Source of the DNA: a virus
Lineage: Duplodnaviria > Heunggongvirae > Uroviricota > Caudoviricetes
DNA length: 19,489 bases
IMG/VR virus record: IMGVR_UViG_2609459850_000001
Direction: 5' to 3' (one strand)
Part shown: positions 1 through 16,347 of the stretch, piece after piece
Numbering within the stretch: position 1 is the stretch's first letter
Layout: each line of letters begins with the position of its first letter
Notes under the pieces: model-generated
Told to the model about the DNA's origin: nothing
Seen by the model: the letters and a program-made list of their open reading frames with translations, nothing else
Database searches by the model: none
Program-made: the position numbers and the translations under genes

Positions 1-372
<372 letters not shown>

Positions 373-669
373 CTAGTCTGTTTAGTATTAGCATCAATTT
401 CTCATCAGATGCTATTCAACAATACAAATTACCCATAAACCTCGTTTTTACGGGGTTTTGTTATATTTAAACATTACCGAATAGGTATAAATCTCGATTG
501 TCGATGGTATTGGTTGTGTGACAATACCTAGTCTTTCCGGTATGCCTGAAGAGAATACAAACGACAGATTATGTAAGGGAAACGCGCTGAATCTTTAACT
601 CTTTCATGCTGAGTGATTTGACGTTATATTTTTAGCCGTAAGTGAAGAGCAAACGCATGGAGCGACAAA

Positions 670-876
670 ATGCATAAAGATCAATACACTGATGCCCCCT
701 CCCAGGAGCAGGTTCGTGTAAAAACTATGCTTAATAGCACCATTTCGATGGGTTACCCGGATGTTGTAATTGCATGTATAGAACATCAAGTGTCTCTGGA
801 AGCATTCAGGGCAATTGAGGCCGCGTTAGTAAAGCACGATAAGAATACGAAGGATTATTCCCTGGTGGTTGACTGA
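670..876 (+). CDS. small prophage protein, YbcW-like (68 aa), function unknown
   Basis: ATG at 670 with GGAG 10-13 nt upstream. The 68-aa product (…[41 protein letters not shown]…) resembles, from memory, the small DLP12-type protein YbcW that sits upstream of noh/terS in E. coli prophages. Confidence 0.5.
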
Positions 877-912
877 TCACCATAACTGCTAACCATTCTG
901 ACCATTTCACAA

Positions 913-941
913 GTGACAGAGTCAATATCGTATTCTGTCAC
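913..941. repeat. perfect 8-bp inverted repeat GTGACAGA-N13-TCTGTCAC downstream of the YbcW-like ORF
   Basis: Read directly from the sequence. No T-run follows, so it is not a classic intrinsic terminator; it could be an operator or RNA hairpin. Confidence 0.4.
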
Positions 942-1237
942 TGTCAGGCTAATACAGCAATGCAATTCAACTACAGCAATGCCTCGTATTTAGGTGAATT
1001 TACAATATCGTCCAGTTCGGATGCCGGCTGCATTTCTGAAGATAAGGCATTTCGGTTCTCGTATTTTCCCCTCATGCTCGTCAGTCCTGCGCGTAGTAAG
1101 AAACAGGACACTCACACTAATTTGTGTGGGCATGCTGTGATGTCCTTCTGAATTATCCCCATGCCATTATGTAAAGCTCTGTTACAGATGCTCGTCACGG
1201 TTGTCAGGCTGTCGGGTCCTCCCAGTGGGGGGCCCTG

Positions 1238-1260
1238 CCACGGGGCGGGAGCGTCGCGGA
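1238..1260 (+). other. candidate cos site (cosN-like), CACG-GGGCGGGAGCGT-CGCGG
   Basis: Lies about 185 bp upstream of the terS start, the same spacing as lambda cosN to Nu1. The flanks resemble lambda cosN (GGGCGGCGACCT followed by CGCGGG) as I recall it, with a different central core. Confidence 0.35.
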
Positions 1261-1298
1261 AAAAGGCTAGTTTTTGAAATTTCATCCGTCATCACCAC

Positions 1299-1324
1299 TA
1301 CTGTAATAGATTGATATTACAGTA
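1299..1324. promoter_or_regulatory. perfect 10-bp inverted repeat TACTGTAATA-N6-TATTACAGTA in the cosB-equivalent region; candidate TerS or host-factor binding site
   Basis: Read directly from the sequence. Sits between the candidate cosN and terS, where lambda carries its R sites and IHF site. Confidence 0.3.
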
Positions 1325-1428
1325 TTTTTATTTTTGTGGTGTCGATTTTGATTGTTTTTTGTTCATCACTAACACCGTTTGCCTAAAGTCGTTCGCAAGA
1401 TGCATGTTTAAAACATTCTGGAGCGGGT

Positions 1429-1923
1429 ATGGATCGAGAGTTAAAAAATCTGACGCTGAATATCAGTCAATTGGCGGCACTGTCAGGTGTACATCGCCAG
1501 ACTGCTGCGGCAAGGCTGCAAAATCTACCCGTTGCAGGGGGGCATGAAAGCAACCTCAAGCTTTATCGGGTGGTTGATATTGTGTCGGCATTTCTGGCAT
1601 TACCACCGCCGGTTGCAGAAGGCGAAATGGACGCACATGAGCGCAAAGCCTGGTATCAGTCTGAACGTGAGCGTCTTAAGTTCGAACAGGAAACGGCACA
1701 ACTCATTCCGGCCAGTGATGTCAGACGGGAGTTTGCCATCTGGGCAAAAGCGGTCGTGCAGGTGCTGGAGACATTACCGGATATTCTTGAACGTGACTGC
1801 GGTCTGCAGCCTGCCGCTGTGAGCCGTGTTCAGTCCATTATTGATGATCTGCGCGATCAGATAGCCCTGCGGGTGACTGAAGCAGGTGCGGATGATGAGG
1901 AGGAATTACAGCAGGAGGAGTAA
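1429..1923 (+). CDS. terminase small subunit (Nu1/NohA family)
   Basis: 164-aa ORF with GGAG upstream; its stop overlaps the terL start (TAATG). N-terminal HTH-like segment followed by a G..G..LY motif, resembling lambda Nu1 architecture and E. coli NohA-type proteins. Position immediately 5' of terL. Confidence 0.8.
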   Translation: MDRELKNLTLNISQLAALSGVHRQTAAARLQNLPVAGGHESNLKLYRVVDIVSAFLALPPPVAEGEMDAHERKAWYQSERERLKFEQETAQLIPASDVRREFAIWAKAVVQVLETLPDILERDCGLQPAAVSRVQSIIDDLRDQIALRVTEAGADDEEELQQEE

Positions 1924-4025
1924 TGCTGAATCAGGAAACCGCAAAGGCAGCACGAACCGATTCAGGTTATATCCTTCGCGCACCGAGACGAATGCGGGTT
2001 GCTGATGCCGTTGCTCAGTATATGCGGGTGCCCATGGGGGCAGGGAACTCAGTCCCGTGGGATCCGCTGGTGGCACCGTATGTTATTGAGCCTATGAACT
2101 GCCTGGCCTCGCGTGAATACGACGCAGTGATATTTGTTGGCCCGGCACGAACCGGCAAGACTATCGGCCTGATTGACGGCTGGGTGATTTACAACGTGAT
2201 TTGCGATCCTGCTGATATGCTGATCATTCAGATGACGGAGGAAAAAGCCCGCGAACACTCCAAAAAACGACTCGCCAGAACGTTTCGCGTCAGCCCGGAA
2301 GTGGTCAGTCGCCTGAGTCCGAACAAAAATGACAACAACGTTTATGACAGAACATTCCTTGCTGGCAACTACCTGAAAATCGGCTGGCCGTCAGTCAATA
2401 TCATGTCTTCATCAGATTATAAATGCGTGGCGCTGACGGATTATGACCGTTTTCCGGAAGATATTGATGGTGAGGGGGATGCCTTCTCTCTTGCCTCAAA
2501 ACGTACCACCACATTTATGTCCAGTGGTATGACGCTGGTGGAGAGTTCCCCCGGCAGGGATGTGAAGGATGTGAAATGGCGACGGACTTCACCGCATGAG
2601 GCTCCACCAACCACGGGGATCCTGTCGCTCTATAACCGTGGCGATCGCCGTCGCTGGTACTGGCCCTGTCCACACTGTGGTGAGTATTTTCAGCCCTGCG
2701 GCGATGTGGTTGCTGGTTTCCGTGATATTGCCGATCCTGTGCTGGCAAGTGAGGCGGCTTATATTCAGTGTCCTTCCTGTTCAGGACGGATTTTGCCTGA
2801 ACAAAAACGCGAGCTGAACGGACGTGGGGTCTGGTTACGGGATGGTGAATCCATCAATGCAGATGGCAGTCGTTATGGTGATCCCCGGCGTTCACGTATT
2901 GCGTCATTCTGGATGGAGGGTCCGGCAGCTGCTTATCAGACACTCTCGCAACTCGTTTACAAACTGCTTACTGCAGAACAGGAATACGAGACAACCGGAA
3001 GTGAAGAGACACTCAAGACGGTTATCAATACCGACTGGGGATTACCTTATCTTCCCCGCGCCAGCATGGAGCAACGAAAAAGTGAATTGCTTGAGCAGCG
3101 GGCAGAGCCAGTTCCTTCCCGCAGTGTGCCGGATGGCGTTAATTTCCTTGTGGCGACAGTGGATGTGCAGGCGGGACGTCATCGCCGTTTTGTGGTTCAG
3201 GTAACGGGCTATGGCAGCCGTGGCGAACGCTGGATTATTGATCGTTACAACATCACGCAGTCATTGCGCGGTGACAGCGACGGGGAGAGCCAGCGAATTG
3301 ATCCGGCCAGCTATCCGGAAGACTGGGATGTCCTGCTGACGGATGTTTTTCATAAAAGCTGGCCGCTGGCCTCCGACCCTTCTCAACAAATGCGACTGAT
3401 GGCAATGGCGGTGGACTCCGGCGGTGAAGACGGGGTCACTGATAATGCCTATAAATTCTGGCGTCGTTGCCGTCGTGATGGCCTTGGTAAACGTATTTAC
3501 CTGTTTAAGGGCGACAGCATCCGGCGAGCAAAACTGATCACCCGTACATTCCCTGATAACACCGGACGAACGGGCCGACGGGCGCAGGCCGCAGGTGATG
3601 TGCCGCTCTGGCTTCTTCAGACGGATGCCCTGAAAGACCGGGTGAATAACGCGTTATGGCGTGACTCGCCAGGTCCCGGCTATGTGCATTTCCCTGACTG
3701 GCTGGGGAGCTGGTTTTACGACGAACTGACGTATGAAGAGCGGAGCAGTGACGGGAAATGGAGTAAGCCGGGTCGCGGTGCCAACGAAGCTTTTGACCTG
3801 ATGGTGTATGCCGAGGCTCTGGTCATTCTGCATGGATACGAAAAGATCCGCTGGCCGGATGCACCGGAGTGGGCGAGCCGGGAAACCTGGCTGGAGTGTG
3901 TCCCGGACAGTACCGAACCGTCACCCTCACCGGAACCGGTACCCACGCCTGTTAAAAAACAAAAACGGAAGAAAACATTAACTGACGATGTTAACCCCTG
4001 GCTGACTTCCGGAGGATGGTTATGA
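1923..4025 (+). CDS. terminase large subunit (gpA family)
   Basis: 700-aa ORF with a Walker A-like GPARTGKT near the N-terminus and a CPHCG...CPSC zinc-ribbon-like segment, as in lambda gpA. Position between terS and portal. Confidence 0.9.
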   Translation: MLNQETAKAARTDSGYILRAPRRMRVADAVAQYMRVPMGAGNSVPWDPLVAPYVIEPMNCLASREYDAVIFVGPARTGKTIGLIDGWVIYNVICDPADMLIIQMTEEKAREHSKKRLARTFRVSPEVVSRLSPNKNDNNVYDRTFLAGNYLKIGWPSVNIMSSSDYKCVALTDYDRFPEDIDGEGDAFSLASKRTTTFMSSGMTLVESSPGRDVKDVKWRRTSPHEAPPTTGILSLYNRGDRRRWYWPCPHCGEYFQPCGDVVAGFRDIADPVLASEAAYIQCPSCSGRILPEQKRELNGRGVWLRDGESINADGSRYGDPRRSRIASFWMEGPAAAYQTLSQLVYKLLTAEQEYETTGSEETLKTVINTDWGLPYLPRASMEQRKSELLEQRAEPVPSRSVPDGVNFLVATVDVQAGRHRRFVVQVTGYGSRGERWIIDRYNITQSLRGDSDGESQRIDPASYPEDWDVLLTDVFHKSWPLASDPSQQMRLMAMAVDSGGEDGVTDNAYKFWRRCRRDGLGKRIYLFKGDSIRRAKLITRTFPDNTGRTGRRAQAAGDVPLWLLQTDALKDRVNNALWRDSPGPGYVHFPDWLGSWFYDELTYEERSSDGKWSKPGRGANEAFDLMVYAEALVILHGYEKIRWPDAPEWASRETWLECVPDSTEPSPSPEPVPTPVKKQKRKKTLTDDVNPWLTSGGWL

Positions 4026-4234
4026 ATCAGAATGATATTGAAGCCATGATTCAGCGTTATACGGAAGCTGAAATGGCGGTGCTGGACGGAAAATCCGTCA
4101 CTTTTAATGGTCAGCAGATGACCATGGAAAACTTATCTGAGATCCGGCAGGGGCGGCAGGAGTGGGAGCGCCGCCTTGCGGCTCTGATTACACGACGACG
4201 GGGGCATCCCGGGTACCGGCTGGCGAGGTTCTGA
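4022..4234 (+). CDS. head-tail connector / head completion protein (gpW-like)
   Basis: About 70 aa. The ATG at 4022 overlaps the terL stop (ATGA) and has GGAGG 6 nt upstream; the ATG at 4016 is too close to the RBS. The C-terminal RRRG motif recalls lambda gpW, and the position (terL-W-portal) matches lambda. Confidence 0.6.
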   Translation: MNQNDIEAMIQRYTEAEMAVLDGKSVTFNGQQMTMENLSEIRQGRQEWERRLAALITRRRGHPGYRLARF

Positions 4235-5742
4235 TGGCAATTCTTGATGATGTGATTGGCGTTTTTTCACCAGGATGGAAAGCGGCAAGGCTGCGTTCCC
4301 GTGCGGTGATCCAGGCTTATGAGGCCGTAAAAACGACGCGGACACACAAAGCCCGACGGGAGAACCGAACTGCCGACCAGTTAAGCCAGTACGGGGCCGT
4401 GTCGTTACGTGAGCAGGCTCGTTACCTTGATAACAACCACGATCTGGTCATTGGTGTATTTGACAAGCTGGAAGAACGGGTGGTGGGGAAAAACGGGATT
4501 ATTGTCGAGCCACATCCGGTATTACGCAATGGGGCCATTGCCCGTGATCTGGCAGCGGAGATACGTACCCGATGGAGTGAATGGTCTGTCAGTCCGGAGG
4601 TCACCGGGCAGTTTACCCGTCCGATGCTGGAACGTCTGATGCTGCGTACCTGGCTGCGCGATGGTGAGGTGTTTGCCCAGATGGTTTCCGGGCGCATAAA
4701 CAGCCTGACGCCTTCTGCCGGTGTTCATTTCTGGCTGGAGGCGCTCGAGCCGGACTTTATTCCCATGACCAGTGATGAGAGCAACAGGCTGAATCAGGGC
4801 GTGTTTGTTGATGACTGGGGGCGTCCCGAAAAATATCTGGTGTATAAAAGCCGTCCCGTATCCGGGCGGCAGATGGAAACCAAAGAAGTGGATGCAGAGC
4901 GAATGCTGCATCTTAAATTTGTTCGCCGTCTGCACCAGATGCGCGGGACGTCTTTGTTGTCCGGTGTGCTGATCCGCCTCAGTGCTCTGAAAGAGTATGA
5001 AGATTCTGAGCTGACTGCAGCAAGGATCGCCGCTGCTCTGGGGATGTACATCCGGAAAGGCGACGGACAGAGCTATGAAACGGATGGTAATGACAGCAAG
5101 GAGAATGAACGCGAGCTTACCATTCAGCCAGGCATTATTTACGACGATCTGAAACCCGGCGAAGAAATCGGAATGGTGAAGTCGGATCGCCCCAATCCTA
5201 ACCTTGAAACTTTTCGTAATGGTCAGTTGCGTGCCGTGGCTGCGGGCAGTCGTCTGAGTTTTTCCAGTACAGCGCGCAACTATAACGGCACTTACAGCGC
5301 CCAGCGTCAGGAGCTGGTTGAATCTACTGATGGCTACCTGATCCTGCAGGACTGGTTTATTGGTGCCGTCACCCGCCCGATGTACCGTGCCTGGCTGAAA
5401 CAGGCTGTGGTATCCGGTGTTATCAGGCTACCCCGCGATCTGGACCGATCTTCACTGTATACCGCGGTGTATTCCGGACCGGTGATGCCGTGGATTGACC
5501 CTGTTAAGGAGGCTGAGGCCTGGAAAATTCAGATTCGTGGTGGAGCGGCGACAGAATCAGACTGGGTACGTGCAGGTGGTCGTAATCCTGATGATGTCAA
5601 ACGTCGGCGCAAGGCCGAAATTGATGAAAACCGCAAGCTGGATCTGGTATTTGATACCGATCCGGCCAGTGATAAAGGAGGCAGCAGTGCCGCAACGAAA
5701 CGACAGGAGCCGCAGCACACCGACGACCAGTCCGAAGAATAA
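4234..5742 (+). CDS. portal protein (gpB-like)
   Basis: 502 aa from the ATG at 4234, which overlaps the W stop (TGATG). The track's 4162 start is a GTG inside W. Size and position are typical for a lambdoid portal. Confidence 0.85.
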   Translation: MAILDDVIGVFSPGWKAARLRSRAVIQAYEAVKTTRTHKARRENRTADQLSQYGAVSLREQARYLDNNHDLVIGVFDKLEERVVGKNGIIVEPHPVLRNGAIARDLAAEIRTRWSEWSVSPEVTGQFTRPMLERLMLRTWLRDGEVFAQMVSGRINSLTPSAGVHFWLEALEPDFIPMTSDESNRLNQGVFVDDWGRPEKYLVYKSRPVSGRQMETKEVDAERMLHLKFVRRLHQMRGTSLLSGVLIRLSALKEYEDSELTAARIAAALGMYIRKGDGQSYETDGNDSKENERELTIQPGIIYDDLKPGEEIGMVKSDRPNPNLETFRNGQLRAVAAGSRLSFSSTARNYNGTYSAQRQELVESTDGYLILQDWFIGAVTRPMYRAWLKQAVVSGVIRLPRDLDRSSLYTAVYSGPVMPWIDPVKEAEAWKIQIRGGAATESDWVRAGGRNPDDVKRRRKAEIDENRKLDLVFDTDPASDKGGSSAATKRQEPQHTDDQSEE

Positions 5743-5755
5743 TTCCTGGTTCAGG

Positions 5756-7714
5756 ATGCAGGCAGGTCACCAGAGTGACGCGGATATTTATATTTATGAC
5801 GAGATTGGTTTCTGGGGTGTTACGGCGAAGCAGTTTATCAGTGATCTGAATGCACTGGGCGATATCACCCACATTAATCTCCATATTAATTCACCGGGTG
5901 GCGATGTCTTTGAAGGCATCGCCATTTTTAATGCACTGAAAACACATGGTGCGTCCATTACCGTTTATGTCGACGGTGTGGCGGCGTCAATGGCGTCGGT
6001 CATTGCGATGGTGGGAAACCCGGTCATTATGCCGGAAAACTCCTTCATGATGATTCATAAACCATTTGGCTTTACGGGCGGTGATGCGGAGGACATGCGC
6101 ACCTATGCCGACCTGCTCGATAAAGTTGAGGCGGTTCTGTTACCCGCTTATGCACAGAAAACCGGGAAAACCACCGATGAAATTGCTGCCATGCTGGCGG
6201 ATGAGACCTGGATGTCCGGTGCCGAATGTCTGGCACAGGGATTTGCTGATCAGGTGACACCAGCCGTTAAGGCAATGGCATGTATTCAGTCAAAACGTAC
6301 AGAGGAATTTAAAAAGATGCCGGAATCCATTCGAAATATGATTACTCCGCCACGCAACAGTGCTCCACGCGTACAGGATGATGGACCTGCAGCCTCCCGG
6401 ACGCCAGTGCAGGCAGCAGCACCCGTGGTGGATGAAAACAGCATCCGTGCGCAGGTCCTGGCAGAGCAAAAAGCGCGTGTAAACGGTATTAATGCTCTGT
6501 TTGCCATGTTTGGCGGGCGTTATCAGTCGTTGCAGGCTCAGTGTCTTGCCGATCCTGAATGTTCGCTGGAGCAGGCCCGCGAAAAGCTGTTGAACGAGAT
6601 GGGGCGCGAGTCCACGCCATCCAATAAAAATACCCCGGCTCATATTTATGCCGGTAACGGTAATTTTGTGGGGGACGGGATCCGCCAGGCGCTGATGGCG
6701 CGCGCCGGGTTTGAAAAAACTGAACGTGATAATGTCTACAACGGGATGACCCTGCGTGAATATGCCCGTATGTCACTGACTGAACGTGGTATTGGTGTTT
6801 CCAGTTATAACCCGATGCAGATGGTCGGTGCGGCGTTCACACACAGTACGTCTGACTTCGGTAATATTCTGCTGGATGTTGCGAACAAAGCCATTCTGCA
6901 GGGCTGGGAAGATGCCCCTGAAACCTATGAACAGTGGACGCGGAAAGGTCAGTTGTCTGATTTTAAAATTGCCCATCGTGTGGGTATGGGGGGCTTCAGT
7001 GCTCTGCGTCAGGTGCGTGAAGGGGCAGAATATAAATACGTCACCACCGGAGATAAACAGGCCACTATTGCACTGGCGACCTATGGCGAGCTGTTCAGTA
7101 TCACCCGTCAGGCCATTATCAATGATGATCTGAATATGCTGACCGATGTCCCGATGAAGCTGGGCCGTGCGGCGAAATCCACTATTGCCGATCTGGTTTA
7201 TGCCATTCTGACGTCTAACCCGAAAATCTCCACAGATAATGTAAGTCTGTTCGATAAAGCGAAACATGCAAACGTACTGGAGAGCGCGGCAATGGACGTG
7301 GCATCGCTGGATAAAGCCCGCCAGTTGATGCGCGTTCAGAAAGAGGGTGAGCGTCATCTGAATATTCGTCCTGCGTTCGTACTGGTACCGACGGCGATGG
7401 AGTCTGTTGCTAACCAGGTCATTCGCTCCTCAAGTGTCAAGGGGGCTGACATTAACGCCGGTATTATTAACCCGGTGAAAGATTTTGCGACCGTTATTGC
7501 AGAGCCTCGTCTTGATGATAACAGCCAGACCACCTTCTACCTGGCTGCGTCCAAAGGCTCCGATACGATTGAAGTGGCTTATCTCAACGGTGTGGATACG
7601 CCATATATTGATCAGATGGAGGGCTTCAGTGTGGATGGCGTGACAACGAAAGTGCGTATTGACGCTGGTGTTGCGCCAGTTGATCACCGCGGCCTGGTGA
7701 AATGTACGGCGTAA
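5756..7714 (+). CDS. fused prohead protease (ClpP/S49-like) - scaffold - major capsid protein (tripartite capsid gene)
   Basis: N-terminal segment IYIYDEIGFWG...INSPGGDVFEGIAIFNALK...VDGVAASMASVIAM...MMIHKPF is protease-like. The middle is Ala/Gln/Glu-rich, and the C-terminal roughly 250 aa is capsid-like. The start is taken as the first ATG after the portal stop; the track's 5495 is a TTG inside portal. The start is uncertain (weak RBS). Confidence 0.75.
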   Translation: MQAGHQSDADIYIYDEIGFWGVTAKQFISDLNALGDITHINLHINSPGGDVFEGIAIFNALKTHGASITVYVDGVAASMASVIAMVGNPVIMPENSFMMIHKPFGFTGGDAEDMRTYADLLDKVEAVLLPAYAQKTGKTTDEIAAMLADETWMSGAECLAQGFADQVTPAVKAMACIQSKRTEEFKKMPESIRNMITPPRNSAPRVQDDGPAASRTPVQAAAPVVDENSIRAQVLAEQKARVNGINALFAMFGGRYQSLQAQCLADPECSLEQAREKLLNEMGRESTPSNKNTPAHIYAGNGNFVGDGIRQALMARAGFEKTERDNVYNGMTLREYARMSLTERGIGVSSYNPMQMVGAAFTHSTSDFGNILLDVANKAILQGWEDAPETYEQWTRKGQLSDFKIAHRVGMGGFSALRQVREGAEYKYVTTGDKQATIALATYGELFSITRQAIINDDLNMLTDVPMKLGRAAKSTIADLVYAILTSNPKISTDNVSLFDKAKHANVLESAAMDVASLDKARQLMRVQKEGERHLNIRPAFVLVPTAMESVANQVIRSSSVKGADINAGIINPVKDFATVIAEPRLDDNSQTTFYLAASKGSDTIEVAYLNGVDTPYIDQMEGFSVDGVTTKVRIDAGVAPVDHRGLVKCTA

Positions 7715-7737
7715 ACGTCGCAGACAACAACTCTGAT

Positions 7738-7757
7738 GGCCCGTAAGGGCTTTTTTT
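7738..7757 (+). terminator. intrinsic terminator-like hairpin after the capsid gene (GGCCC-GTAA-GGGC + T7)
   Basis: GC stem with a GNRA-type GTAA loop followed by seven T residues, 24 nt after the capsid stop. A second 7-bp hairpin (CAGCCCC-TGAAC-GGGGCTG, 7769-7787) follows without a T-run. Confidence 0.45.
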
Positions 7758-7800
7758 GTACCTGAAATCAGCCCCTGAACGGGGCTGTGCGGAGACAGTT

Positions 7801-8124
7801 ATGGCAAAGAATTTTGTAGAAGAAGGAAAAACGGTGGCGATTGTTGCCAGTGCAGCCATCAGCAGCGGAGATCTGGTGCAGGTGGGTGATGTTTTTGCGG
7901 TGGCGCTGACCGATATTCCACAGGGAGAAACAGGCGACGGCATAACCGAAGGTGTGTTTATGCTGCCTAAGCTGAAAACGGATGACATGAAAACGGGTAA
8001 GAAGGTTTATCTGAAGTCAGGAAAAGTTCAGCTGACTAACAGCGGCTCTGATCCGCTGGTCGGGGTTGTATGGGCAGATGCCGGAACCAGTGCAGAAGAA
8101 GTGCCGGTAAAACTCAATGTCTGA
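7801..8124 (+). CDS. small head protein, putative decoration/cement protein (DUF2190-like)
   Basis: 107 aa from the ATG at 7801 with GGAGA 5 nt upstream; the track's 7756 is a TTG inside the terminator hairpin. Sits directly after the capsid gene, where lambda has D. The family assignment is from memory and weak. Confidence 0.45.
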   Translation: MAKNFVEEGKTVAIVASAAISSGDLVQVGDVFAVALTDIPQGETGDGITEGVFMLPKLKTDDMKTGKKVYLKSGKVQLTNSGSDPLVGVVWADAGTSAEEVPVKLNV

Positions 8125-8392
8125 TCCCTTTTCCCGGCTGGCAGCGCGTATGGATGCGATCACGGTCAGAAAGATGGGAAAGACAGCCTCGATTAATGAT
8201 GTCGATATGACTGTGATCCCGGGAGAAACACTGGCAGAGCTGAATGCTCTGTCCGGACCTGCGGTCTCTCTGGTGGTGTTTTCTTCGGGATACCGCCCAC
8301 GGCGCGGGGATCGCGTTGTTTATGACGGACAACAATGGACGGTCACACGGCATGAACGTTTTAACGGTAAGCCAATGATCTTTATTGAGTAA
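8117..8392 (+). CDS. head-tail joining / head completion protein (FII-like position)
   Basis: 91-aa ORF whose start overlaps the previous stop (ATGTCTGA). Position between the head proteins and Z. Confidence 0.5.
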   Translation: MSDPFSRLAARMDAITVRKMGKTASINDVDMTVIPGETLAELNALSGPAVSLVVFSSGYRPRRGDRVVYDGQQWTVTRHERFNGKPMIFIE

Positions 8393-8403
8393 AGAGGTGT
8401 GGG

Positions 8404-8982
8404 ATGAAGGGGCTTGAGAATGCCATCCGCAATCTGAACAGCCTTGATACCCGTATGGTGCCACAGGCCAGCGCATGGGCGATAAACCGTGTGGCACAGA
8501 AAGCGGTCTCGGTTGCCACCCGGCAGGTTGCCGGGAATACCGTTGCGGGAGATAACCAGGTGAAAGGGATCCCCCTGAAACTGGTACGTCAGCGTGTCCG
8601 GGTGTTTAAAGCCAGTCCGTCAGGAAAAATGACGGCCAGGATCCGCGTTAACCGGGGCAATCTGCCCGCCATTAAGCTGGGGACAGCCCGGGTCAGACTG
8701 GCCCGGCGTGGTGGAAAACTGCAGTACCGTGGCAGTGTGCTGAAGGTGGGTAAATATCTTTTCCGGGATGCGTTTATTCAGCAACTGGCGAATGGTCGCT
8801 GGCATGTGATGCGACGTATTGATGGCAAAAATCGTTACCCCATTGATGTGGTGAAAATCCCGCTGTCCGGACCGCTGACACAGGCATTTGAAGATGCCCG
8901 CGACCACATCATTGCTGCGGAAATGCCGAAACAGCTGGGGTATGCACTGAAACAACAACTGAGGTTATGGCTGACCCGATGA
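8404..8982 (+). CDS. Z: tail completion protein Z
   Basis: 192 aa, the same length as lambda gpZ. RBS AGAGGTG upstream; lies immediately 5' of U with ATGA overlap. Confidence 0.8.
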   Translation: MKGLENAIRNLNSLDTRMVPQASAWAINRVAQKAVSVATRQVAGNTVAGDNQVKGIPLKLVRQRVRVFKASPSGKMTARIRVNRGNLPAIKLGTARVRLARRGGKLQYRGSVLKVGKYLFRDAFIQQLANGRWHVMRRIDGKNRYPIDVVKIPLSGPLTQAFEDARDHIIAAEMPKQLGYALKQQLRLWLTR

Positions 8983-9380
8983 ACCGACATACACAAATCC
9001 GCCAGGCCGTACTGGCACGCCTTCGGGAACAGTGTGGAGACAGCGCCACGTTTTTTGACGGGCTTCCGGCATTTATTGATGCGCAGGAACTGCCTGCCGT
9101 GGCGGTGTGGCTGAGTGATGCTCAGTACACCGGAAAAATGACGGATGAAGATGACTGGCAGGCTGTTCTGCATATTGCCGTCTTCATCCGGGCACAGGCA
9201 CCGGATTCAGAGCTGGATATGTGGATGGAGAGCACCATTTTCCCTGCCCTGAATGATATACCGGCACTTTCCGGACTCATCGACACCCTGATCCCACTCG
9301 GTTTTAACTATCAACGTGATAATGAGATGGCCACCTGGGCGATGGCGGAAATCACGTACCAGATCACGTACACGAATTAA
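8979..9380 (+). CDS. U: tail terminator protein U
   Basis: The product (…ATFFDGLPAFIDAQELPAVAVWLSDAQYTG…PDSELDMWMESTIFPALNDIPALS…) aligns with lambda gpU as I recall it. The start is chosen at the ATG overlapping the Z stop; an alternative ATG lies at 8967. Confidence 0.85.
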   Translation: MNRHTQIRQAVLARLREQCGDSATFFDGLPAFIDAQELPAVAVWLSDAQYTGKMTDEDDWQAVLHIAVFIRAQAPDSELDMWMESTIFPALNDIPALSGLIDTLIPLGFNYQRDNEMATWAMAEITYQITYTN

Positions 9381-9390
9381 GGAGGTGGTA

Positions 9391-10134
9391 ATGACCACAC
9401 CAAATCCACTGGCAAAGACGAAAGGTGCGGGGACGACGTTCTGGATGTATACCGGCAACGGCGATGCGTTTGCGAACCCTTTGTCGGACACTGACTGGCT
9501 GCGTCTTGCGATGGTGAAGGATCTGCAACCTGGCGAAATGACCGCTGATGCAGAAGATGACACTTATCTCGATGATGAAGATGCAGACTGGAAAACGACA
9601 ACCCAGGGGCAGAAATCCGTTGGTGATACTTCGGCGACGCTGGCCTGGCGTCCGGGTGACAGCGGGCAGAAAAAACTGGTTCAGTTGTTCGACTCCGGTG
9701 AAGTCTGCGCGTTTCGTATCAAATATCCCAACGGCACTGTTGATGTTTTCCGTGGCTGGCTGAGCTCACTGGGTAAAACCATTGCCTCAAAAGACGTGAT
9801 GACCCGCACTGTGAAAATCAGCGGTGTGGGGCGTCCGTATCTGGCAGAGGAAGGCACTGAAACCGTGAGCGTTACCGGGCTGACAGTATCACCGGCGTCT
9901 GCCAGTGTAAAAGTGGGAGCAACCACCACGCTGACCTTTACAGTAAAACCTGACGGAGCCAGTGACAAAGCGATCAGTGTGCATTCGTCAGATCCACAGA
10001 CTGCCACGGTTACCCTGAACGGACTTGTGGCCACGGTAAAAGGCGTGAAGCAGGGCAGTGTCAGCATTGTGGGCATGACCGCTGACGGGAATTTTGTGGC
10101 TGTGACTGCGGTGACTGTCAGCGCAGCAGGTTAA
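9391..10134 (+). CDS. V: major tail protein V with C-terminal Ig-like (Big_2) domain
   Basis: 247 aa with AAGGAGGT RBS. N-terminus MTTPNPLAKTKGAGTTFWMY and ...YPNGTVDVFRGW... match lambda gpV. The C-terminal roughly 90 aa are Thr/Val/Ser-rich, typical of an Ig-like domain. Confidence 0.9.
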   Translation: MTTPNPLAKTKGAGTTFWMYTGNGDAFANPLSDTDWLRLAMVKDLQPGEMTADAEDDTYLDDEDADWKTTTQGQKSVGDTSATLAWRPGDSGQKKLVQLFDSGEVCAFRIKYPNGTVDVFRGWLSSLGKTIASKDVMTRTVKISGVGRPYLAEEGTETVSVTGLTVSPASASVKVGATTTLTFTVKPDGASDKAISVHSSDPQTATVTLNGLVATVKGVKQGSVSIVGMTADGNFVAVTAVTVSAAG

Positions 10135-10154
10135 CAGGACGATACTCATCATTT

Positions 10155-10178
10155 GCCCCGGTTATGCGGGGCTTTTTT
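10155..10178 (+). terminator. intrinsic terminator-like hairpin after V (GCCCCG-GTTATG-CGGGGC + T6)
   Basis: 6-bp GC stem followed by TTTTTT, 21 nt after the V stop and immediately before the G RBS. Confidence 0.5.
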
Positions 10179-10194
10179 GCAGGTGGAGAACATG

Positions 10195-10581
10195 ATGTTT
10201 CTGAAACAGGACACGTTTAATTATGAAAAACAGTCCGTGGTGCTCAGTGAGCTGTCCGGGCTGCAGAGAATTGAATATCTGACGTTTGTTCAGCAGCGAA
10301 CGGCAAAGTTTGATGCCGGGGAGGGAGAACTGCCGGAGGCTGAACGACAGATTGCTTTTCTGCGGATGGGGATGGATATCAATGCCTGGCTGGTTTCCCG
10401 CTCACTGTGGAATGCGGATCAGTCTAAGGATGTAGAGACGCTTTGCGCATCCGTTATTACAACATGGTCGTATGATGCCCTGGGTGCGGGGGCGGAGATG
10501 GTTCTGTCGCTGAGCGGTATGGGGGCCATTGATAATGCCGTGGATGATGAGCATGAGGCGCTGACGCCGGAAAAGTCCTGA
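10195..10581 (+). CDS. G: tail assembly chaperone G
   Basis: The N-terminus MFLKQDTFNYEKQSVVLSELSGLQRIEYL matches lambda gpG (MFLKTESFEH…LSELSALQRIEHL). GGAGA lies 5 nt upstream of the ATG at 10195. The track's 10153 start falls inside the terminator. Confidence 0.85.
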   Translation: MFLKQDTFNYEKQSVVLSELSGLQRIEYLTFVQQRTAKFDAGEGELPEAERQIAFLRMGMDINAWLVSRSLWNADQSKDVETLCASVITTWSYDALGAGAEMVLSLSGMGAIDNAVDDEHEALTPEKS

Positions 10582-10919
10582 CGCGGGAAATGCAGTTTGT
10601 CATGCGGCTTGCCCGGGAGTTCCGGCGGGCAGACTGGCGGCGGATGCTGTCGGAAATGTCGGCCACTGAGCTTGGTGAGTGGGGCGATTATTTCCGGATG
10701 CAGAGCTTCAGTGATGTGTGGATGGATGCGCAGTTTGCCTCGCTGAAGGCATTGATCGTGAGAATGGTGTCCGGCAGCAGTGATGCTGCGGTGGCTGATT
10801 TCAGCCTTTTACCGGAAGAGAACGGGATACCGGAGCGAACGGACGAAGAACTGATGCATCTTGGGGAAGGTATTTCCGGAGGTGTGCGTTATGGACCAGA
10901 TAGCCAACCTGGTCATTGA
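10195..10919 (+). CDS. GT: tail assembly chaperone G-T, predicted -1 programmed frameshift product (shift around 10569-10575)
   Basis: The -1 frame is open from 10557 to the stop at 10917-10919 and overlaps the last 8 codons of G. The heptamer G GAA AAG (10569-10575) is one nucleotide different from the lambda site G GGA AAG. Gene order G-T-H as in lambda. Confidence 0.65.
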
Positions 10920-13900
10920 TTTGGGGATTGATGCGGCAGAGTTTAAAAATGAAATTCCCCGTATCAAAAACCTTCTGAATGGTGCAGCCAGCGATGCAGA
11001 ACGGTCTTCTGCCCGTATGCAGCGTTTTATGGAGCGTCAGACTCAGGCCGCCCGGCAGACAACGCAGGCAGCTTCTTCGGCTGCAACAGCCGCATCCGTC
11101 CATGCGCAGACGGTGGAGAAGAACGCACAGGCTCATGAACGCATGGCCCGCGAGGTGGAGAAAACCCGCCAGCGCATGGAGGCACTGAGCCAGAAAATGC
11201 GCGAGGAACAGGCGCAGGCCATGGCTCTGGCGGAGGCTCAGGATAAAGCGGCTGCTGCGTTTTATCGTCAGATTGACAGTGTGAAACAGGCCAGTGCGGG
11301 GCTGCAGGAATTACAGCGTATTCAGCAGCAGATCCGACAGGCCAGAAACAGTGGCGGGATTGGTCAGCAGGATTATCTGGCGCTGATTTCTGAGGTTACT
11401 GCGAAAACCCGTGTTCTTACACAGGCTGAGGAAGAGGCTACCCGACAGAAAGTGGCGTTTATCCGTCAGCTTAAAGAGCAGGCAACCCGCCTGAATCTTT
11501 CATCTTCTGAGTTGCTTCGTGCTAAGGCAGCCCAGCTGGGGGTAAGCAGTGCTGCAGAAGTGTATATCCGCAAAATGGAGCAGGCAGGAAAAGCCACGCA
11601 TTCGCTGGGTCTGAAAAGTGCAGCAGCCCGCCAGGAGATAGGCGTTCTGATAGGTGAACTGGCCCGCGGCAATTTAGGAGCGCAGAGGGGATCCGGGATA
11701 ACGCTGGCTAACCGTGCCGGATGGATAGACACACTGATGTCACCGAAAGGCATGATGCTTGGCGGGGTTATTGGCGGTATTGCCGCGGCCGTCTATGGTC
11801 TGGGTAAAGCCTGGTATGACGGTCAGAAGGAGGGGGAAGAATTTAACCGCCAGTTGTCGCTGACGGGGCATTATGCCGGAGTCACTGCCGGGCAGCTGTG
11901 GACGCTCAGTCGTGCTATTTCCGGGAATGGTATCACGCAACATGCTGCAGCCGGTGCGCTGGCTCAGGTGGTGGGGAGTGGTGCATTTCGTGGAAACGAT
12001 ATCGGTATGGTGGCGAGAGCTGCCGCACAGATGGAGCGATCGGTTGGCCAGTCGGTCAGCGATACCATAAATCAGTTTAAGCGGCTGAAGGATGATCCTG
12101 TAAATGCCGCGAAGGCTCTGGACAATGAGCTGCATTTTCTTACTGCCACTCAGCTTGAGCAGATACGCGTCCTTGGGGAGCAGGGGCGGTCCAGTGATGC
12201 TGCACGGATAGCCATGTCTGCACTGGCAGAGGAAACCGGTCGGCGTACTGCGGATATTGATAATAACCTCAATGCGCTTGGCAGTACGCTGAAGTATCTG
12301 TCTGATTTGTGGAGTCGTTTCTGGGATGCGGCCATGAATATTGGTCGTGAAGACTCGCTGGATGAACAGATTGCCGCTTTACAGGAGAAAGTGTCGCGGG
12401 CGAAAAGACTCCCCTGGACGGCATCATCTTCTCAGGTTGAATACGATCAGCAGCGTCTTAACGATCTTCAGGAGAAAAAACGCCAGAAGGATTTGCAGGA
12501 TGCAAAAGAGCAGGCAGAGCGGAATTATCAGGAGCAACAGAAACGCCGTAATGCTGAAAATGCTGCACTGAACCGGATGAATGAAACGGAAGCAGCACGA
12601 CATCAGCGTGAAATTGCGCGTATTAATGCCATGCAGTACGCCGATCAGGCTGTCAGGGATGCGGCGATACAACGTGAAAATGAACGTTACGAGAAAGCCC
12701 TGGCATCCGGTAAGAAAAAAACACGCGAAACCCGTAATGATGAGGCCACCCGGTTATTGCTGCAGTACAGTCAGCAACAGGCACAGGTGGAAGGACAGAT
12801 TGCTGCTGCCAGACAGTCAGCAGGCATTGCCACGGAAAGGATGACAGAAGCGCATAAACAGCTTCTGGCTCTGCAGCAGCGCATCAGCGACCTGGACGGG
12901 AAAAAACTGACGGCAGATGAAAAGAGTGTGCTGGCCCGTAAAGATGAACTGATTCAGGCACTGACGCTGCTGGATGTAAAACAGCAGGAGCTACAGAAAC
13001 AGACGGCACTCAACGAGCTGAAGAAAAAAACAATTCAGCTGACCAGTCAACTGGCTGAAGAAGAGCGCGCTCAGCGTCAGCAACATGACCTGGATATCGC
13101 CACGGTGGGTATGGGTGATCAGCAGCGACAGCGATATCAGGTACAACTGAGTCTTCGCCAGAAATACCAGCAACAGCTGGAGCAGTTGAGGCGAGATAGT
13201 GAGCAGAAAGGGACATATAACACGGATGACTACAGAAAGGCCGAGCAGGCGCTGACGGAGAGCCTGAACCGACAACTGAATGAGAATCGCCGTTACTGGC
13301 AACAGCTTGAAGTTGTGCAGGGTAACTGGAAAAACGGAGTCCTGCGTGCATTTCAGGATTTTACCGTGGATGCAGATAATACGGCAGAAACAGCAGAACA
13401 GGTGTTCTCGTCAGCCTTCAGCAACATGGGAAATGGCCTGGCAACTTTTGTCACTACCGGCAAACTCAATTTCAAATCCTTCACCTCTTCTGTGCTGTCA
13501 GATATGGCGAAAATCCTGGCGCAGGCAACCATGATGAAATCGATAAAAGGGATTGGCAGTGTACTGGGATTTGATCTCAGCAGCCTTTCCCTGAATGCCA
13601 ATGGGGGGATTTATCAGTCTGCTGATTTGAGTCGTTACAGTGGCACGGTGGTTAACCGTCCGACGTTTTTTGCTTTTGCAAAAGGCGCGGGTGTGATGGG
13701 GGAAGCGGGACCTGAAGCCATTCTGCCATTGCGTCGTGGTGCTGACGGTAAGCTGGGGGTTGTGGCGGATATTGGGGGTTCAGGTATGGCGATGTTTTCC
13801 CCGCAGTACAACATCGAGATCAATAACGATGGCACGAACGGGCAGATAGGTCCGGCTGCCCTGAAGGCGGTTTATGACCTCGGGAAAAAAGCGGCAGCGG

Positions 13901-13956
13901 ACTTTATGCAACAGCAGGCCCGTGATGGTGGTCGGTTAAGTGGAGCATATCGGTAA
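10891..13956 (+). CDS. H: tail tape measure protein H
   Basis: 1021 aa from the ATG at 10891 with GGAGG 8 nt upstream. N-terminus MDQIANLVIDLGIDAAEF resembles lambda H (MAEPVGDLVVDLSLDAARF), and the C-terminus NNDGTNGQIGPAALKAVYD...DGG matches the lambda H C-terminus. Long central coiled-coil-like Q/E/R/K-rich region. Confidence 0.9.
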   Translation: MDQIANLVIDLGIDAAEFKNEIPRIKNLLNGAASDAERSSARMQRFMERQTQAARQTTQAASSAATAASVHAQTVEKNAQAHERMAREVEKTRQRMEALSQKMREEQAQAMALAEAQDKAAAAFYRQIDSVKQASAGLQELQRIQQQIRQARNSGGIGQQDYLALISEVTAKTRVLTQAEEEATRQKVAFIRQLKEQATRLNLSSSELLRAKAAQLGVSSAAEVYIRKMEQAGKATHSLGLKSAAARQEIGVLIGELARGNLGAQRGSGITLANRAGWIDTLMSPKGMMLGGVIGGIAAAVYGLGKAWYDGQKEGEEFNRQLSLTGHYAGVTAGQLWTLSRAISGNGITQHAAAGALAQVVGSGAFRGNDIGMVARAAAQMERSVGQSVSDTINQFKRLKDDPVNAAKALDNELHFLTATQLEQIRVLGEQGRSSDAARIAMSALAEETGRRTADIDNNLNALGSTLKYLSDLWSRFWDAAMNIGREDSLDEQIAALQEKVSRAKRLPWTASSSQVEYDQQRLNDLQEKKRQKDLQDAKEQAERNYQEQQKRRNAENAALNRMNETEAARHQREIARINAMQYADQAVRDAAIQRENERYEKALASGKKKTRETRNDEATRLLLQYSQQQAQVEGQIAAARQSAGIATERMTEAHKQLLALQQRISDLDGKKLTADEKSVLARKDELIQALTLLDVKQQELQKQTALNELKKKTIQLTSQLAEEERAQRQQHDLDIATVGMGDQQRQRYQVQLSLRQKYQQQLEQLRRDSEQKGTYNTDDYRKAEQALTESLNRQLNENRRYWQQLEVVQGNWKNGVLRAFQDFTVDADNTAETAEQVFSSAFSNMGNGLATFVTTGKLNFKSFTSSVLSDMAKILAQATMMKSIKGIGSVLGFDLSSLSLNANGGIYQSADLSRYSGTVVNRPTFFAFAKGAGVMGEAGPEAILPLRRGADGKLGVVADIGGSGMAMFSPQYNIEINNDGTNGQIGPAALKAVYDLGKKAAADFMQQQARDGGRLSGAYR

Positions 13957-14285
13957 TGGAGACGTTTCACTGGAAAGTGCGCCCGGATATGAATGTGGTA
14001 TCAGAGCCGAAAGTGGTGACAGTGAAGCTGGGCGATGGTTATGAACAGCGTCGTGCGGCGGGACTGAATAACCAGTTGTCGACTTACAGCGTGACGATAC
14101 GTGTTCGTAAATGTGAACACCCATCTTTAAAAGCCTTTCTGGAACGGCACGGTGGCGTCCGTGCATTTCAGTGGACGCCACCTTATGACTGGAAACCGAT
14201 CAGGGTGGTTTGTCGTAAATGGTCGGCAAGCGTGGGGGCGCTGTGGGTAACCATAACGGCAGATTTTGAACAGGTCGTGGCATAG
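13956..14285 (+). CDS. M: minor tail protein M
   Basis: 109 aa, the same length as lambda gpM, with near-identical motifs (METF.WKV.P, GDGY.QR, KWS). The start overlaps the H stop (TAATG). Confidence 0.95.
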   Translation: METFHWKVRPDMNVVSEPKVVTVKLGDGYEQRRAAGLNNQLSTYSVTIRVRKCEHPSLKAFLERHGGVRAFQWTPPYDWKPIRVVCRKWSASVGALWVTITADFEQVVA

Positions 14286-14294
14286 GAGGCTCTG

Positions 14295-14993
14295 ATGCAG
14301 GATATTCCACAGGAAACACATCATGAGACGACACGCCTCACTCAGTCAGCCCAGGTGGTGCTCTGGGAAATCGATCTGACAGAGGTCGGTGGTGAACGTT
14401 ATTTTTTCTGTAATGAGCAGAACGAAAAAGGTGAGCCGGTTATCTGGCAGGGGCGGCAGTATCAGGTATACCCCATTCAGGGGACGGGATTTGAACTGAA
14501 CGGCAAGGGCAGTGCTGCCCGTCCGACACTGACGGTTTCTAACCTGCACGGCATGGTCACCGGGATGGCGGAAGACCTGCAGAGTCTGGTCGGAGGAATG
14601 GTGGTCCGGCGTAAGGTTTACGCCCGTTTTCTGGATGCGGTGAACTTCGTCAACGGAAACAGTGACGCCGATCCGGAGCAGGAGGTGATCAGCCGCTGGC
14701 GCATCGAGCAGTGCAGCGAACTGAGCGCGGTGAGTGCCTCTTTTGTACTGTCCACGCCGACGGAAACGGACGGTGCCGTTTTTCCGGGACGTATCATGCT
14801 GGCCAACACCTGCACCTGGACCTATCGCGGTGATGAGTGCGGTTATCACGGTCCGGCGGTCGCGGATGAATATGATCAGCCGACGTCCGATATCACGAAG
14901 GATAAATGCAGCAAATGCCTGAGCGGCTGTAAGTTTCGCAATAACGTCGGCAACTTTGGCGGCTTCCTTTCCATTAACAAACTTTCGCAGTGA
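14295..14993 (+). CDS. L: minor tail protein L
   Basis: 232 aa, the same length as lambda gpL, and near-identical over long stretches (SVVLWEIDLTEVGGERYFFCNEQNEKGEP, CTWTYRGDECGY, KCSKCLSGCKFRNNVGNFGGF). AGGAGG RBS. Confidence 0.95.
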   Translation: MQDIPQETHHETTRLTQSAQVVLWEIDLTEVGGERYFFCNEQNEKGEPVIWQGRQYQVYPIQGTGFELNGKGSAARPTLTVSNLHGMVTGMAEDLQSLVGGMVVRRKVYARFLDAVNFVNGNSDADPEQEVISRWRIEQCSELSAVSASFVLSTPTETDGAVFPGRIMLANTCTWTYRGDECGYHGPAVADEYDQPTSDITKDKCSKCLSGCKFRNNVGNFGGFLSINKLSQ

Positions 14994-14998
14994 ATCCC

Positions 14999-15742
14999 AT
15001 GACAGAGACAGAATCAGCGATTCTGGCGCACGCCCGGCGATGTGCGCCAGCGGAGTCGTGCGGCTTCGTGGTGAGAACACCGGAGGGGGAAAGATATTTT
15101 CCCTGCGTGAATATCTCCGGTGAGCCGGAGGAGTATTTCCGGATGTCGCCGGAGGACTGGCTGCGGGCAGAGATGCAGGGTGAGATTGTGGCGCTGGTCC
15201 ACAGCCACCCCGGTGGTCTGCCCTGGCTGAGTGAGACCGACCGGCGGCTGCAGGTGCAGAGTGATTTGCCGTGGTGGCTGGTTTGCCGGGGGGCGATTCA
15301 CAAGTTCCGCTGTGTGCCACATCTTTCCGGGCGGCGCTTTGAGCACGGGGTGACGGACTGTTACACGCTGTTCCGGGATGCTTACCATCTGGCGGGGATT
15401 GAGATGCCGGATTTTCATCGCGAGGATGACTGGTGGCGTAACGGTCAGAATCTCTATCTGGATAATCTGGAGGCCACAGGGCTGTATCAGGTGCCGTTGT
15501 CAGCGGCGCAGCCGGGCGATGTGCTGCTGTGCTGTTTTGGTTCATCGGTGCCGAATCATGCCGCCATTTACTGTGGTGACGGCGAGCTGCTGCACCATAT
15601 TCCTGAACAACTGAGCAAACGAGAGAGGTATACCGACAAATGGCAGCGACGCACACACTCCCTCTGGCGTCACCGGGCATGGCACGCATCTGCCTTTACG
15701 GGGATTTACAACGATTTGGCCGCCGCATCGACCTTCGAGTGA
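14999..15742 (+). CDS. K: tail assembly protein K (JAMM/MPN metalloprotease-like + NlpC/P60-like domains)
   Basis: The JAMM signature H-S-H-x7-S-x2-D (HSHPGGLPWLSETD) is present in the sequence, and a Cys (VTDCYTLF) / His pair sits in the C-terminal half. Start set at the first ATG (14999); a GTG at 14990 overlaps the L stop. The 3' end overlaps I by 103 nt in another frame. Confidence 0.85.
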   Translation: MTETESAILAHARRCAPAESCGFVVRTPEGERYFPCVNISGEPEEYFRMSPEDWLRAEMQGEIVALVHSHPGGLPWLSETDRRLQVQSDLPWWLVCRGAIHKFRCVPHLSGRRFEHGVTDCYTLFRDAYHLAGIEMPDFHREDDWWRNGQNLYLDNLEATGLYQVPLSAAQPGDVLLCCFGSSVPNHAAIYCGDGELLHHIPEQLSKRERYTDKWQRRTHSLWRHRAWHASAFTGIYNDLAAASTFE

Positions 15743-16287: not shown

Positions 16288-16347
16288 TGAAAAACGTTTT
16301 ATGTGAAACCACCTCCGGGCGGTTTTGTCGTTTATGGAGCGTTAGGA

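Follow-up and report, generated by a model that had tools for sequence, protein, structure and literature searches.

Post-capsid terminators are a known kind of element and have been annotated in lambdoid phages for more than 20 years. In phage lambda, the stem-loop AUGGCCC-UUCG-GGGCCAU lies between genes E and Fi, just 5' of the Fi Shine-Dalgarno (SD) sequence; the RefSeq record of HK97 lists a 'terminator, putative' at 5192..5213 immediately 3' of major head gene 5, and a second one 3' of the major tail gene; and P22 carries a stem_loop at 6102..6119 after coat gene 5, which its record describes as 'similar in location to stem-loops in phage HK97 and phage lambda'. In each of these phages the element is a single strong hairpin (−13 to −21 kcal/mol), and its T-run is mediocre or short.

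Leaky intra-operon terminators tune structural-gene mRNA in T7 (T-phi, after gene 10) and phiX174 (TJ, TF, TG and TH), where a hairpin and U-tract stand right after the major capsid gene, within a longer unit of transcription, and the measured partial termination enriches the capsid message. Intercistronic hairpins can also act as stabilisers, as in pap and the malE-malF REP, where they flank AU-rich segments that are sensitive to RNase E. Efficient intrinsic terminators have stems of about 5–14 bp and energies of about −10 to −20 kcal/mol, and polymerase modified by Q of lambda or phage 21 should pass weak terminators.

Concerning terminators inside late operons, the phage L genome paper (2020 preprint) states that 'their roles are not known' and names partial termination or the stopping of non-antiterminated transcripts as possible roles. 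A first-pass annotation of the phage DNA studied here had read two hairpins behind its capsid gene as partial attenuators or 3' stabilisers, which is a speculation already in the literature for terminators of this class. Here, we compare this locus, contained in a stretch of 19,489 nt that we call the window, with its relatives in phages and bacterial genomes.

Results

The window is DNA of an mEp460-type phage

Sequence comparison identifies the window as DNA of an mEp460-type lambdoid phage, bases 7000-8400 matching Escherichia phage mEp460_ev081 at 100% identity and both mEp460 and Ayreon at 99%. Positions 1404-19364 align with mEp460 1-17960 at 97.5% identity and positions 1054-1403 match the right end of the mEp460 genome, so that the window crosses the joined cos site; its collinearity with mEp460 runs from the right end across cos as far as J, all genes lying on one strand. 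The window includes neither the Q gene nor the late promoter; the Q-like antiterminator encoded by mEp460 (gp50), together with the collinearity, makes the Q-type late operon that had been assumed for the locus probable. The features that concern us are listed in Table 1. The start of the capsid fusion gene is that of the mEp460 annotation mapped onto the window, the TTG at 5495 being only a mechanical open-reading-frame start. The mEp460 record has further terminators annotated after V, inside T, after J and after lom.

Table 1. Late-operon features of the window, in gene order, with the basis of each assignment
Feature	Position	Strand	Basis or remark
DUF1441 protein, first in gene order			Pfam; annotated as small terminase subunit in mEp460
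gpA-type large terminase, then lambda-family portal			Pfam
ClpP-protease/scaffold/major-capsid fusion gene (mEp460 gp05)	5756..7714	+	Pfam CLP_protease and Phage_capsid_4; stop codon TAA at 7712-7714
Variable spacer, from capsid stop to hairpin 1	7715..7737	+	
Hairpin 1 and T7, minimal intrinsic terminator	7738..7757	+	GGCCC-GUAA-GGGCU, U7; sequence, terminator scan, RNAfold, annotation
AU-rich single-stranded linker	7758..7768	+	consensus ATRYCTRAAAYY; here GTACCTGAAAT, the next C opening hairpin 2
Hairpin 2, 7-bp G+C-rich stem-loop without U-tract	7769..7787	+	CAGCCCC-UGAAC-GGGGCUG; RNAfold and covariation
SD (GGAG, 7791-7794) and ATG (7801-7803) of next gene	7791..7803	+	SD 3 nt past hairpin 2
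Head decoration/cement gene (mEp460 gp06), 107 aa	7801..8124	+	PF09956 Phage_cement_2, E 2.8e-20; PHROG 122 'head decoration', E 5.5e-47
Genes 3' of cement gene, in order: Gifsy-2-family protein, Z, U, major tail protein V			Pfam
Companion element directly 3' of major tail gene V	10155..10178	+	single hairpin and T6, SD 10 nt on; equals mEp460 terminator 8751..8774

The gap that separates the next head gene from the capsid gene is 86 nt long and folds, as a whole, with a z of −1.9. Consensus scanning gives no promoter match in the gap, where TATACC-like hexamers are without the conserved final T, and no promoter-like site on the minus strand near the hairpins. Rfam yields no match in the window at gathering thresholds and, within 7600-7900, only a chance-level match to CC0196 (15.5 bits against a threshold of 35). 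We also considered the sRNA-17 of mEp460-like prophages (PMC7719688), which has 193 nt and belongs to a region of more than 1 kb, and is therefore not the 86-nt gap.

A weak hairpin with a perfect U-tract precedes a strong hairpin without one

The first-pass annotation had both hairpins, the T7 run and the ribosome-binding site at their correct coordinates. In hairpin 1, bases 7738-7742 (GGCCC) pair with 7747-7751 (GGGCU) across a GUAA loop of the GNRA type, forming four G-C pairs and one G-U pair, and T7 occupies 7751-7757, its first T residing in the closing G-U pair. RNAfold gives −8.8 kcal/mol with a z of −2.1, and six of 200 shuffles fold equally well; a scan for the terminator consensus returns 36 sites against 17.4 ± 4.9 by chance in shuffles, and hairpin 1 ranks low among them. 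Hairpin 1 is thus unremarkable in a single sequence, and its reality is to be judged by comparison. Members of the family in the Enterobacterales have a minimal 4-bp stem, with a median of −8.1 kcal/mol (range −6.3 to −9.0), a stability at the weak end that predicts leaky termination; such a stem is a poor barrier to exonucleases and probably a weak terminator. Furthermore, a Q-modified polymerase should ignore so weak a hairpin, and attenuation during lytic growth may therefore be negligible. The hairpin begins 18–31 nt past the stop codon across the family and, considering the size of the ribosome footprint, a terminating ribosome would probably not mask it at a distance of at least 18 nt.

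The same element is already annotated in related phages. The 'rho-independent terminator' at 6334..6353 of the mEp460 RefSeq record (NC_019716) maps exactly onto window positions 7738-7757, the element is annotated as a terminator in Ayreon (MF807953, 6325..6359), and the equivalent site is annotated as a terminator (6294..6312) in mEp043 (NC_019706), which is about 69% identical in the region. Both hairpins had been called terminator-like on first reading; the term fits hairpin 1, by its anatomy and by these three annotations, and does not fit hairpin 2.

Hairpin 2 pairs 7769-7775 (CAGCCCC) with 7781-7787 (GGGGCUG) around the loop UGAAC and folds at −13.9 kcal/mol (z −3.6; one of 200 shuffles as good), the family median being −14.4 kcal/mol. 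The folding energies, whose calculation had been suggested as a check, place both hairpins beyond most shuffles. The hairpin-2 stem is followed by GUGCGGAG and by no U-tract, and the terminator scan does not include it; with no T-run on its 3' side, it is not terminator-like on the plus strand. The two hairpins thus show a division of labour, hairpin 1 being weak with a perfect U7 and hairpin 2 strong with no U-tract. Where relatives have a single hairpin (Pseudomonas, Pasteurella, Shewanella and Psychromonas), that hairpin is strong, at −13 to −21 kcal/mol.

The evidence that hairpin 2 matters as RNA comes from covariation. In a gapless alignment of 26 sequences, double-sided changes occur at seven of eight pairs, and in the covariance-model alignment (52 sequences) they occur at all eight, with 93% of cells paired; the latter alignment is fitted to the model, and the gapless seed alignment gives the same answer. 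The covariation score of 0.433 compares with 0.162 ± 0.015 for shuffled alignments, none of 500 reaching it, and falls to 0.077 or less when the partners are slid. RNAalifold, run on a MAFFT alignment of 46 intergenic regions in which hairpin 2 was misaligned, detected hairpin 1 only. Unlike in hairpin 1, the stem sequence of hairpin 2 varies freely and pairing is retained; by this comparative measure, hairpin 2 is an RNA stem-loop under selection. Stable tetraloops are enriched in both hairpins, with UUCG in 10 and GNRA in 5 of 49 sequences for hairpin 2, and GNRA in 21 of 52 for hairpin 1, and this enrichment argues for a role at the RNA level. An anti-terminator-like pairing between the arms of the two hairpins, both of which contain GCCC/GGGC, can be drawn in the window and was rejected as not conserved, since hairpin 2 elsewhere has stems such as CCGGCAC/GUGCCGG.

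The module is conserved 3' of related capsid genes

The sample of regions downstream of the capsid gene comprised 12 phage records together with 80 genomes of bacteria belonging to different species; these genomes were retrieved by the capsid C-terminal domain and hence selected independently of the intergenic sequence. A viral-contig search with an alignment of the cement protein returned only near-identical loci, and an alignment of the capsid C-terminal domain gave the diverse set. Of 83 distinct regions, spanning Enterobacterales, Vibrionales, Alteromonadales, Pasteurellales and Pseudomonas, 75 carry a hairpin with a T-run 3' of the capsid gene, compared with 9 of 1660 control windows of the same length from capsid coding sequence. 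By inspection, the eight regions scored negative consist of two with no downstream cement gene, one without the 5' arm of hairpin 1, one with a T-run and a loop too long for the scan, and four whose hairpins are followed by no T-run. Another stem sequence is found in the Chris1, Pseudomonas, Shewanella and Pasteurella groups, which retain the hairpin and T-run. Most Enterobacterales share a module that reads, from the stop codon, a spacer of 18–31 nt, GCCC-N4-GGGC, T7, the linker ATRYCTRAAAYY, the second hairpin, 0–3 nt, GGAG, 5–7 nt and the start codon.

Across 51 distinct sequences, mean pairwise identity is 100% for T7, 99.5% for the hairpin-1 stem, 72% for the linker, 55% for the hairpin-1 loop, 46% at third codon positions of the capsid gene and 31% in the 12 nt upstream of hairpin 1. 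These alignments show what is evidently strong purifying selection on the stem, T7 and linker, and by the same measure the spacer upstream of hairpin 1 is unconstrained. Within the Enterobacterales, the GCCC/GGGC stem never has a covarying alternative. In agreement with its anatomy, this pattern makes hairpin 1 very probably a genuine, selected and deliberately weak intrinsic terminator.

The linker has 12 nt in the family, and its positions 2, 5, 6, 9 and 10 are each at least 92% conserved. The invariant sequence of the hairpin-1 stem and the conserved linker are unexplained by structure alone and hint at a sequence-specific partner. An IHF site (AATCAG after the T-run) was rejected by inspection, as it relies on variable bases of hairpin 2 and is unconserved. 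By eye, a similar linker is present in distant members that have another hairpin-1 stem (Chris1 group) or no hairpin 2 (Psychromonas, L200). Inspection also finds the RNase E consensus RN/WUU (the slash marking the point of cleavage) 1–4 nt before hairpin 2 in many members; this kind of motif is not in all of them, the mEp043 group, for example, reading ...GAAACC.

The module is tied to its location. The covariance model has a single match in the window, at 7739-7789 on the plus strand (56.8 bits), and among 120 viral contigs that carry the hairpin-1-T7-linker motif, 118 were scored as having it between capsid and cement genes and a 119th has it there by inspection; the remaining contig (L200) has the motif in another context, without hairpin 2. 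Variants of the 86 nt at 95% identity or more are present in 1817 of 5426 complete E. coli genomes. Among the E. coli records listed, no annotated feature lies under the match, and RefSeq E. coli genomes leave the element unannotated.

The gene that follows encodes a decoration protein

The SD of the next gene adjoins hairpin 2 throughout the family, with a gap of 0–3 nt in 46 of 49 relatives and an SD-to-start distance of 5–7 nt in 43 of 49. Decoration or cement proteins are usually high-copy, in amounts similar to those of the capsid protein, as with gpD and gpE of lambda. The notion that the hairpins set a high ratio of capsid to minor protein does not agree with the identity of the next gene, whose product is of this usually high-copy class (PF09956, PHROG 122; Table 1) and would probably be needed in capsid-like amounts, a poor fit with attenuation at this point. 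Against the PDB, the cement protein has a sole match, a weak one by profile (E 0.003) to the 'gp48 minor capsid protein' of 9gay.

Two Buttiauxella prophages (L107 and L117) lack the cement gene and have the two-hairpin module complete, in front of a homologue of the following gene that is 45% identical to window 8117-8389. Since the module is kept without the cement gene, it presumably belongs to the 3' end of the capsid gene or has a generic intercistronic role, and these loci make it unlikely to be a cement-specific operator.

Discussion

Proposed mechanism and alternatives

We propose that a weak, leaky terminator and a stable RNA structure together shape the abundance and stability of mRNA by segment, in favour of the capsid message, a reading from comparative data to which we give roughly even chances. 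Polymerase without the Q modification would terminate inefficiently at hairpin 1, and Q-modified polymerase would read through it almost completely, leaving a late transcript in which an exposed AU-rich segment is framed by the two hairpins. A capsid-gene mRNA with a protected 3' end would result from termination at hairpin 1; alternatively, such an end would arise if the RNA were cut in the linker or further downstream and then trimmed from its 3' side as far as a hairpin. The downstream message would then begin with hairpin 2, or be insulated by it, and the net effect would be a tuning of mRNA abundance and stability by segment, with the capsid message favoured. Termination efficiency, Q read-through, processing and the effect on expression are all quantities that we infer here; the recurrence of a similar design after the major tail gene supports the mechanism. 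A more specific version, which we put forward tentatively and think rather less probable, is that the invariant GCCC-N4-GGGC-U7, the linker consensus AURYCURAAAYY and the covarying hairpin 2 constitute a dedicated post-transcriptional control cassette of head modules with a ClpP-capsid fusion, acting either as a site of programmed RNase E processing with protective hairpins on its two sides or as the binding site of a host or phage RNA-binding factor. If true, this would explain a conservation at the sequence level beyond the needs of a plain terminator, and the cassette would set the output of capsid against that of downstream head-completion genes independently of Q read-through.

Two other readings assign the elements a different task. 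Hairpin 1 could be only a safeguard that stops polymerases which initiated away from the late promoter and lack Q, for instance spurious or lysogenic transcription running into the head-tail genes, with no part in lytic ratios and with hairpin 2 unrelated, which we regard as unlikely although it deserves more weight than the readings that follow. It is well established that Q-modified polymerase is expected to pass so weak a terminator, genuine termination would require just such an invariant T7, and mEp460 also has terminators after V, J and lom. However, a strong hairpin would serve this purpose better, and what the Enterobacterales retain is a minimal stem of 4 bp (−6.3 to −9.0 kcal/mol); also left unexplained by a safeguard, one of the two possibilities that the phage L genome paper names, are linker conservation, the covariation of hairpin 2 and the siting after the major capsid and tail genes. 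We find it less probable still that the linker and hairpin 2 regulate initiation at the adjacent SD, be it as an AU-rich platform for standby or S1 binding, through pairing of the linker YCU with the SD, or as an operator for an RNA-binding protein. In addition to the constant proximity of hairpin 2 to the SD, the minimum-free-energy fold of many members adds an outer helix of 3–4 bp between the linker YCU and the SD (A)GG(A), the linker adjoins the SD directly in members without hairpin 2 (L136, L200), and the ratios of lambda late genes have reportedly been attributed to translation initiation and not to mRNA level. In equilibrium partition-function folding, however, disruption or deletion of hairpin 2 has no significant effect on SD exposure, the median probability of an unpaired SD being 0.037 for native sequences, 0.023 when disrupted and 0.033 when deleted (p = 0.98 and 0.06 for the comparison). 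Pairing between linker and SD is of low probability (mean 0.14), and members of the mEp043 group have no outer helix. Furthermore, the module stands before a different gene where the cement gene is absent, making a cement-specific autoregulatory operator unlikely. The suggestion that hairpin 2 could modulate translation of the next gene is hence upheld as to its position beside the SD and its nature as a selected RNA structure, and not as to an effect on SD accessibility in such folding.

The three remaining readings are all highly improbable. The 3' UTR of the capsid gene, ending at hairpin 1, might be released as an Hfq-type sRNA or sponge that mimics a GcvB target in the manner of AgvB: a CA-rich spacer (CAGACAACAAC) is followed by a hairpin and U7, and Hfq-bound sRNAs are encoded in late regions of prophages (PMC4104026, PMC8550237). 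Yet the spacer is unconserved at 31% identity, AgvB and AsxR are located 3' of PR', PasB lies in antisense orientation between tail genes I and J, the window does not contain the PasB probe, and Rfam gives no match, so that we assign this idea a very small probability. An equally slight one attaches to hairpin 2 as a terminator of antisense transcription, its T-tract then being supplied by the linker's complement (ATTTCAG...). Folded as minus-strand RNA, hairpin 2 reaches −15.2 kcal/mol, and the conserved AAA of the linker becomes a TTT just past the stem, but only 15 of 49 relatives reach five T in 8 nt, the window not among them, no promoter-like site is found nearby on that strand, and the best-conserved bases of the linker (CT) lie outside any T-tract. 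Finally, neutral hairpins arising by chance would be compatible with the low rank of hairpin 1 among many consensus matches in a single sequence, and conservation could in principle stem from recent recombination at a mosaic joint; both are refuted by a stem at 99.5% next to a loop at 55% and upstream sequence at 31%, with hairpin-2 stems that covary, and by positional conservation across orders of Gammaproteobacteria. Indeed, conserved and free positions interleave at a scale of 4–12 nt, which rules out recent transfer as the cause.

With segmental tuning of the late mRNA as our preferred reading, the locus offers an unusually clean system for the old question of what intra-operon terminators do after capsid and tail genes. 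Annotation of prophages could improve, and the region is a compact natural part for tuning polycistronic expression, with practical gains that would be modest.

Comparison with known systems

The nearest counterparts are the stem-loops of lambda, HK97 and P22/L, which likewise follow the major capsid gene immediately, share its strand and stand just 5' of the next SD. They do so inside a Q-dependent late operon, a setting that is probable for the window's element given the collinearity of its operon with mEp460. The capsid genes of lambda, HK97 and P22 have no homology in sequence family with that of the window, and the decoration gene is 3' of the capsid gene in the window, whereas lambda gene D is upstream of E. 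In contrast to lambda, HK97 and P22, the window divides the task: its minimal hairpin carries the perfect U7, and its strong hairpin, set apart by the conserved linker, has no U-tract. The records of mEp460, Ayreon and mEp043 contain the same element, with hairpin 1 annotated and hairpin 2 and the linker not.

T7 uses its own polymerase and phiX174 the unmodified host polymerase, whereas the polymerase on the window is expected to be Q-modified and terminator-resistant, and the logic of T7 and phiX174 may therefore not apply. The likeness to pap and malE-malF lies in two hairpins around an exposed AU-rich linker between cistrons of different required output; the window differs in that cleavage is putative and the RN/WUU-like motif is not universal in its family. 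Against this background, what is new here is the comparative evidence for selection and the bipartite architecture of terminator, linker and hairpin to which it points, a modest novelty within a class of element long annotated in lambdoid phages.

Natural variants of the two-hairpin module

Several loci from the comparison sets carry, in altered form or in another setting, the module that in the window lies between the ClpP-protease/capsid fusion gene and the head decoration/cement gene. In two Buttiauxella prophages (L107 and L117), the decoration/cement gene is absent, and the full two-hairpin module lies immediately before a homologue (45% identical) of the window gene at 8117-8392. The motif consisting of hairpin 1, its T7 tract and the linker, GGCCCATTTGGGCTTTTTTTATACCTAAATTC, was also found at 10909-10936 of a viral contig (L200, IMGVR_UViG_3300003857_000007), where the second hairpin is absent and the linker leads directly into GGAG and then ATG; no ClpP-capsid or cement homologue was detectable near this motif. 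In Trabulsiella guamensis (L173), the region downstream of the capsid gene retains the T7 tract, a linker-like segment and the second hairpin, and hairpin 1 lacks its 5′ arm (TGACAGGGCATTTTTTTATACTGAC...), making this locus a possible natural "mutant" of hairpin 1 for comparing expression.

The two ends of the window

The joined cos site falls within the window, and base 1404 corresponds to position 1 of mEp460. Window 1054-1403 matches the mEp460 right end (85%), and because 1-1053 has no match in mEp460, the right-end region differs between the two. A Pfam search with three ORFs of this region (101-376, 670-876 and 960-1151) gave no match. The unmatched segment upstream of cos also contains an A/T-flanked hairpin, terminator-like on either strand, which could act as a bidirectional terminator (table). 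At the far end, long minus-strand ORFs were listed in 16300-19489 (for example 16948-18393, 481 aa), within a stretch collinear with the mEp460 tail-fibre gene, a homologue of lambda J. Since they lie inside this J-like gene region and have no Pfam matches, these ORFs are probably spurious; the J-like gene itself is missing from the ORF list because it runs past the window end. Outside the window, sRNA-17, an ArcA-regulated sRNA of 193 nt, has been reported from an mEp460-type prophage carried by E. coli K1 strain RS218 (PMC7719688).

Terminator-like sites outside the capsid module
Feature	Window	mEp460	Strand	Sequence or basis
A/T-flanked, terminator-like hairpin	432-458		both	+ strand AAACCTCG-TTTT-TACGGGGTTT then TGTTATATTT; − strand counterpart
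Hairpin + T6 directly 3′ of major tail gene V	10155-10178	8751..8774		GCCCCG-GUUAUG-CGGGGC, −13.7 kcal/mol
Rho-independent terminator inside T (tail assembly) gene, near G/T region	about 10792-10809 (placed by offset)	9389..9406		mEp460 record annotation

The terminator-like site after the major tail gene

The site following V is a single hairpin, the second one being absent; 10 nt 3′ of the hairpin and its T6 tract lies the G-like gene's SD. The site corresponds to an annotated terminator in the mEp460 record, and HK97, another lambdoid phage with a putative post-capsid terminator, likewise has an equivalent site after its major tail gene.
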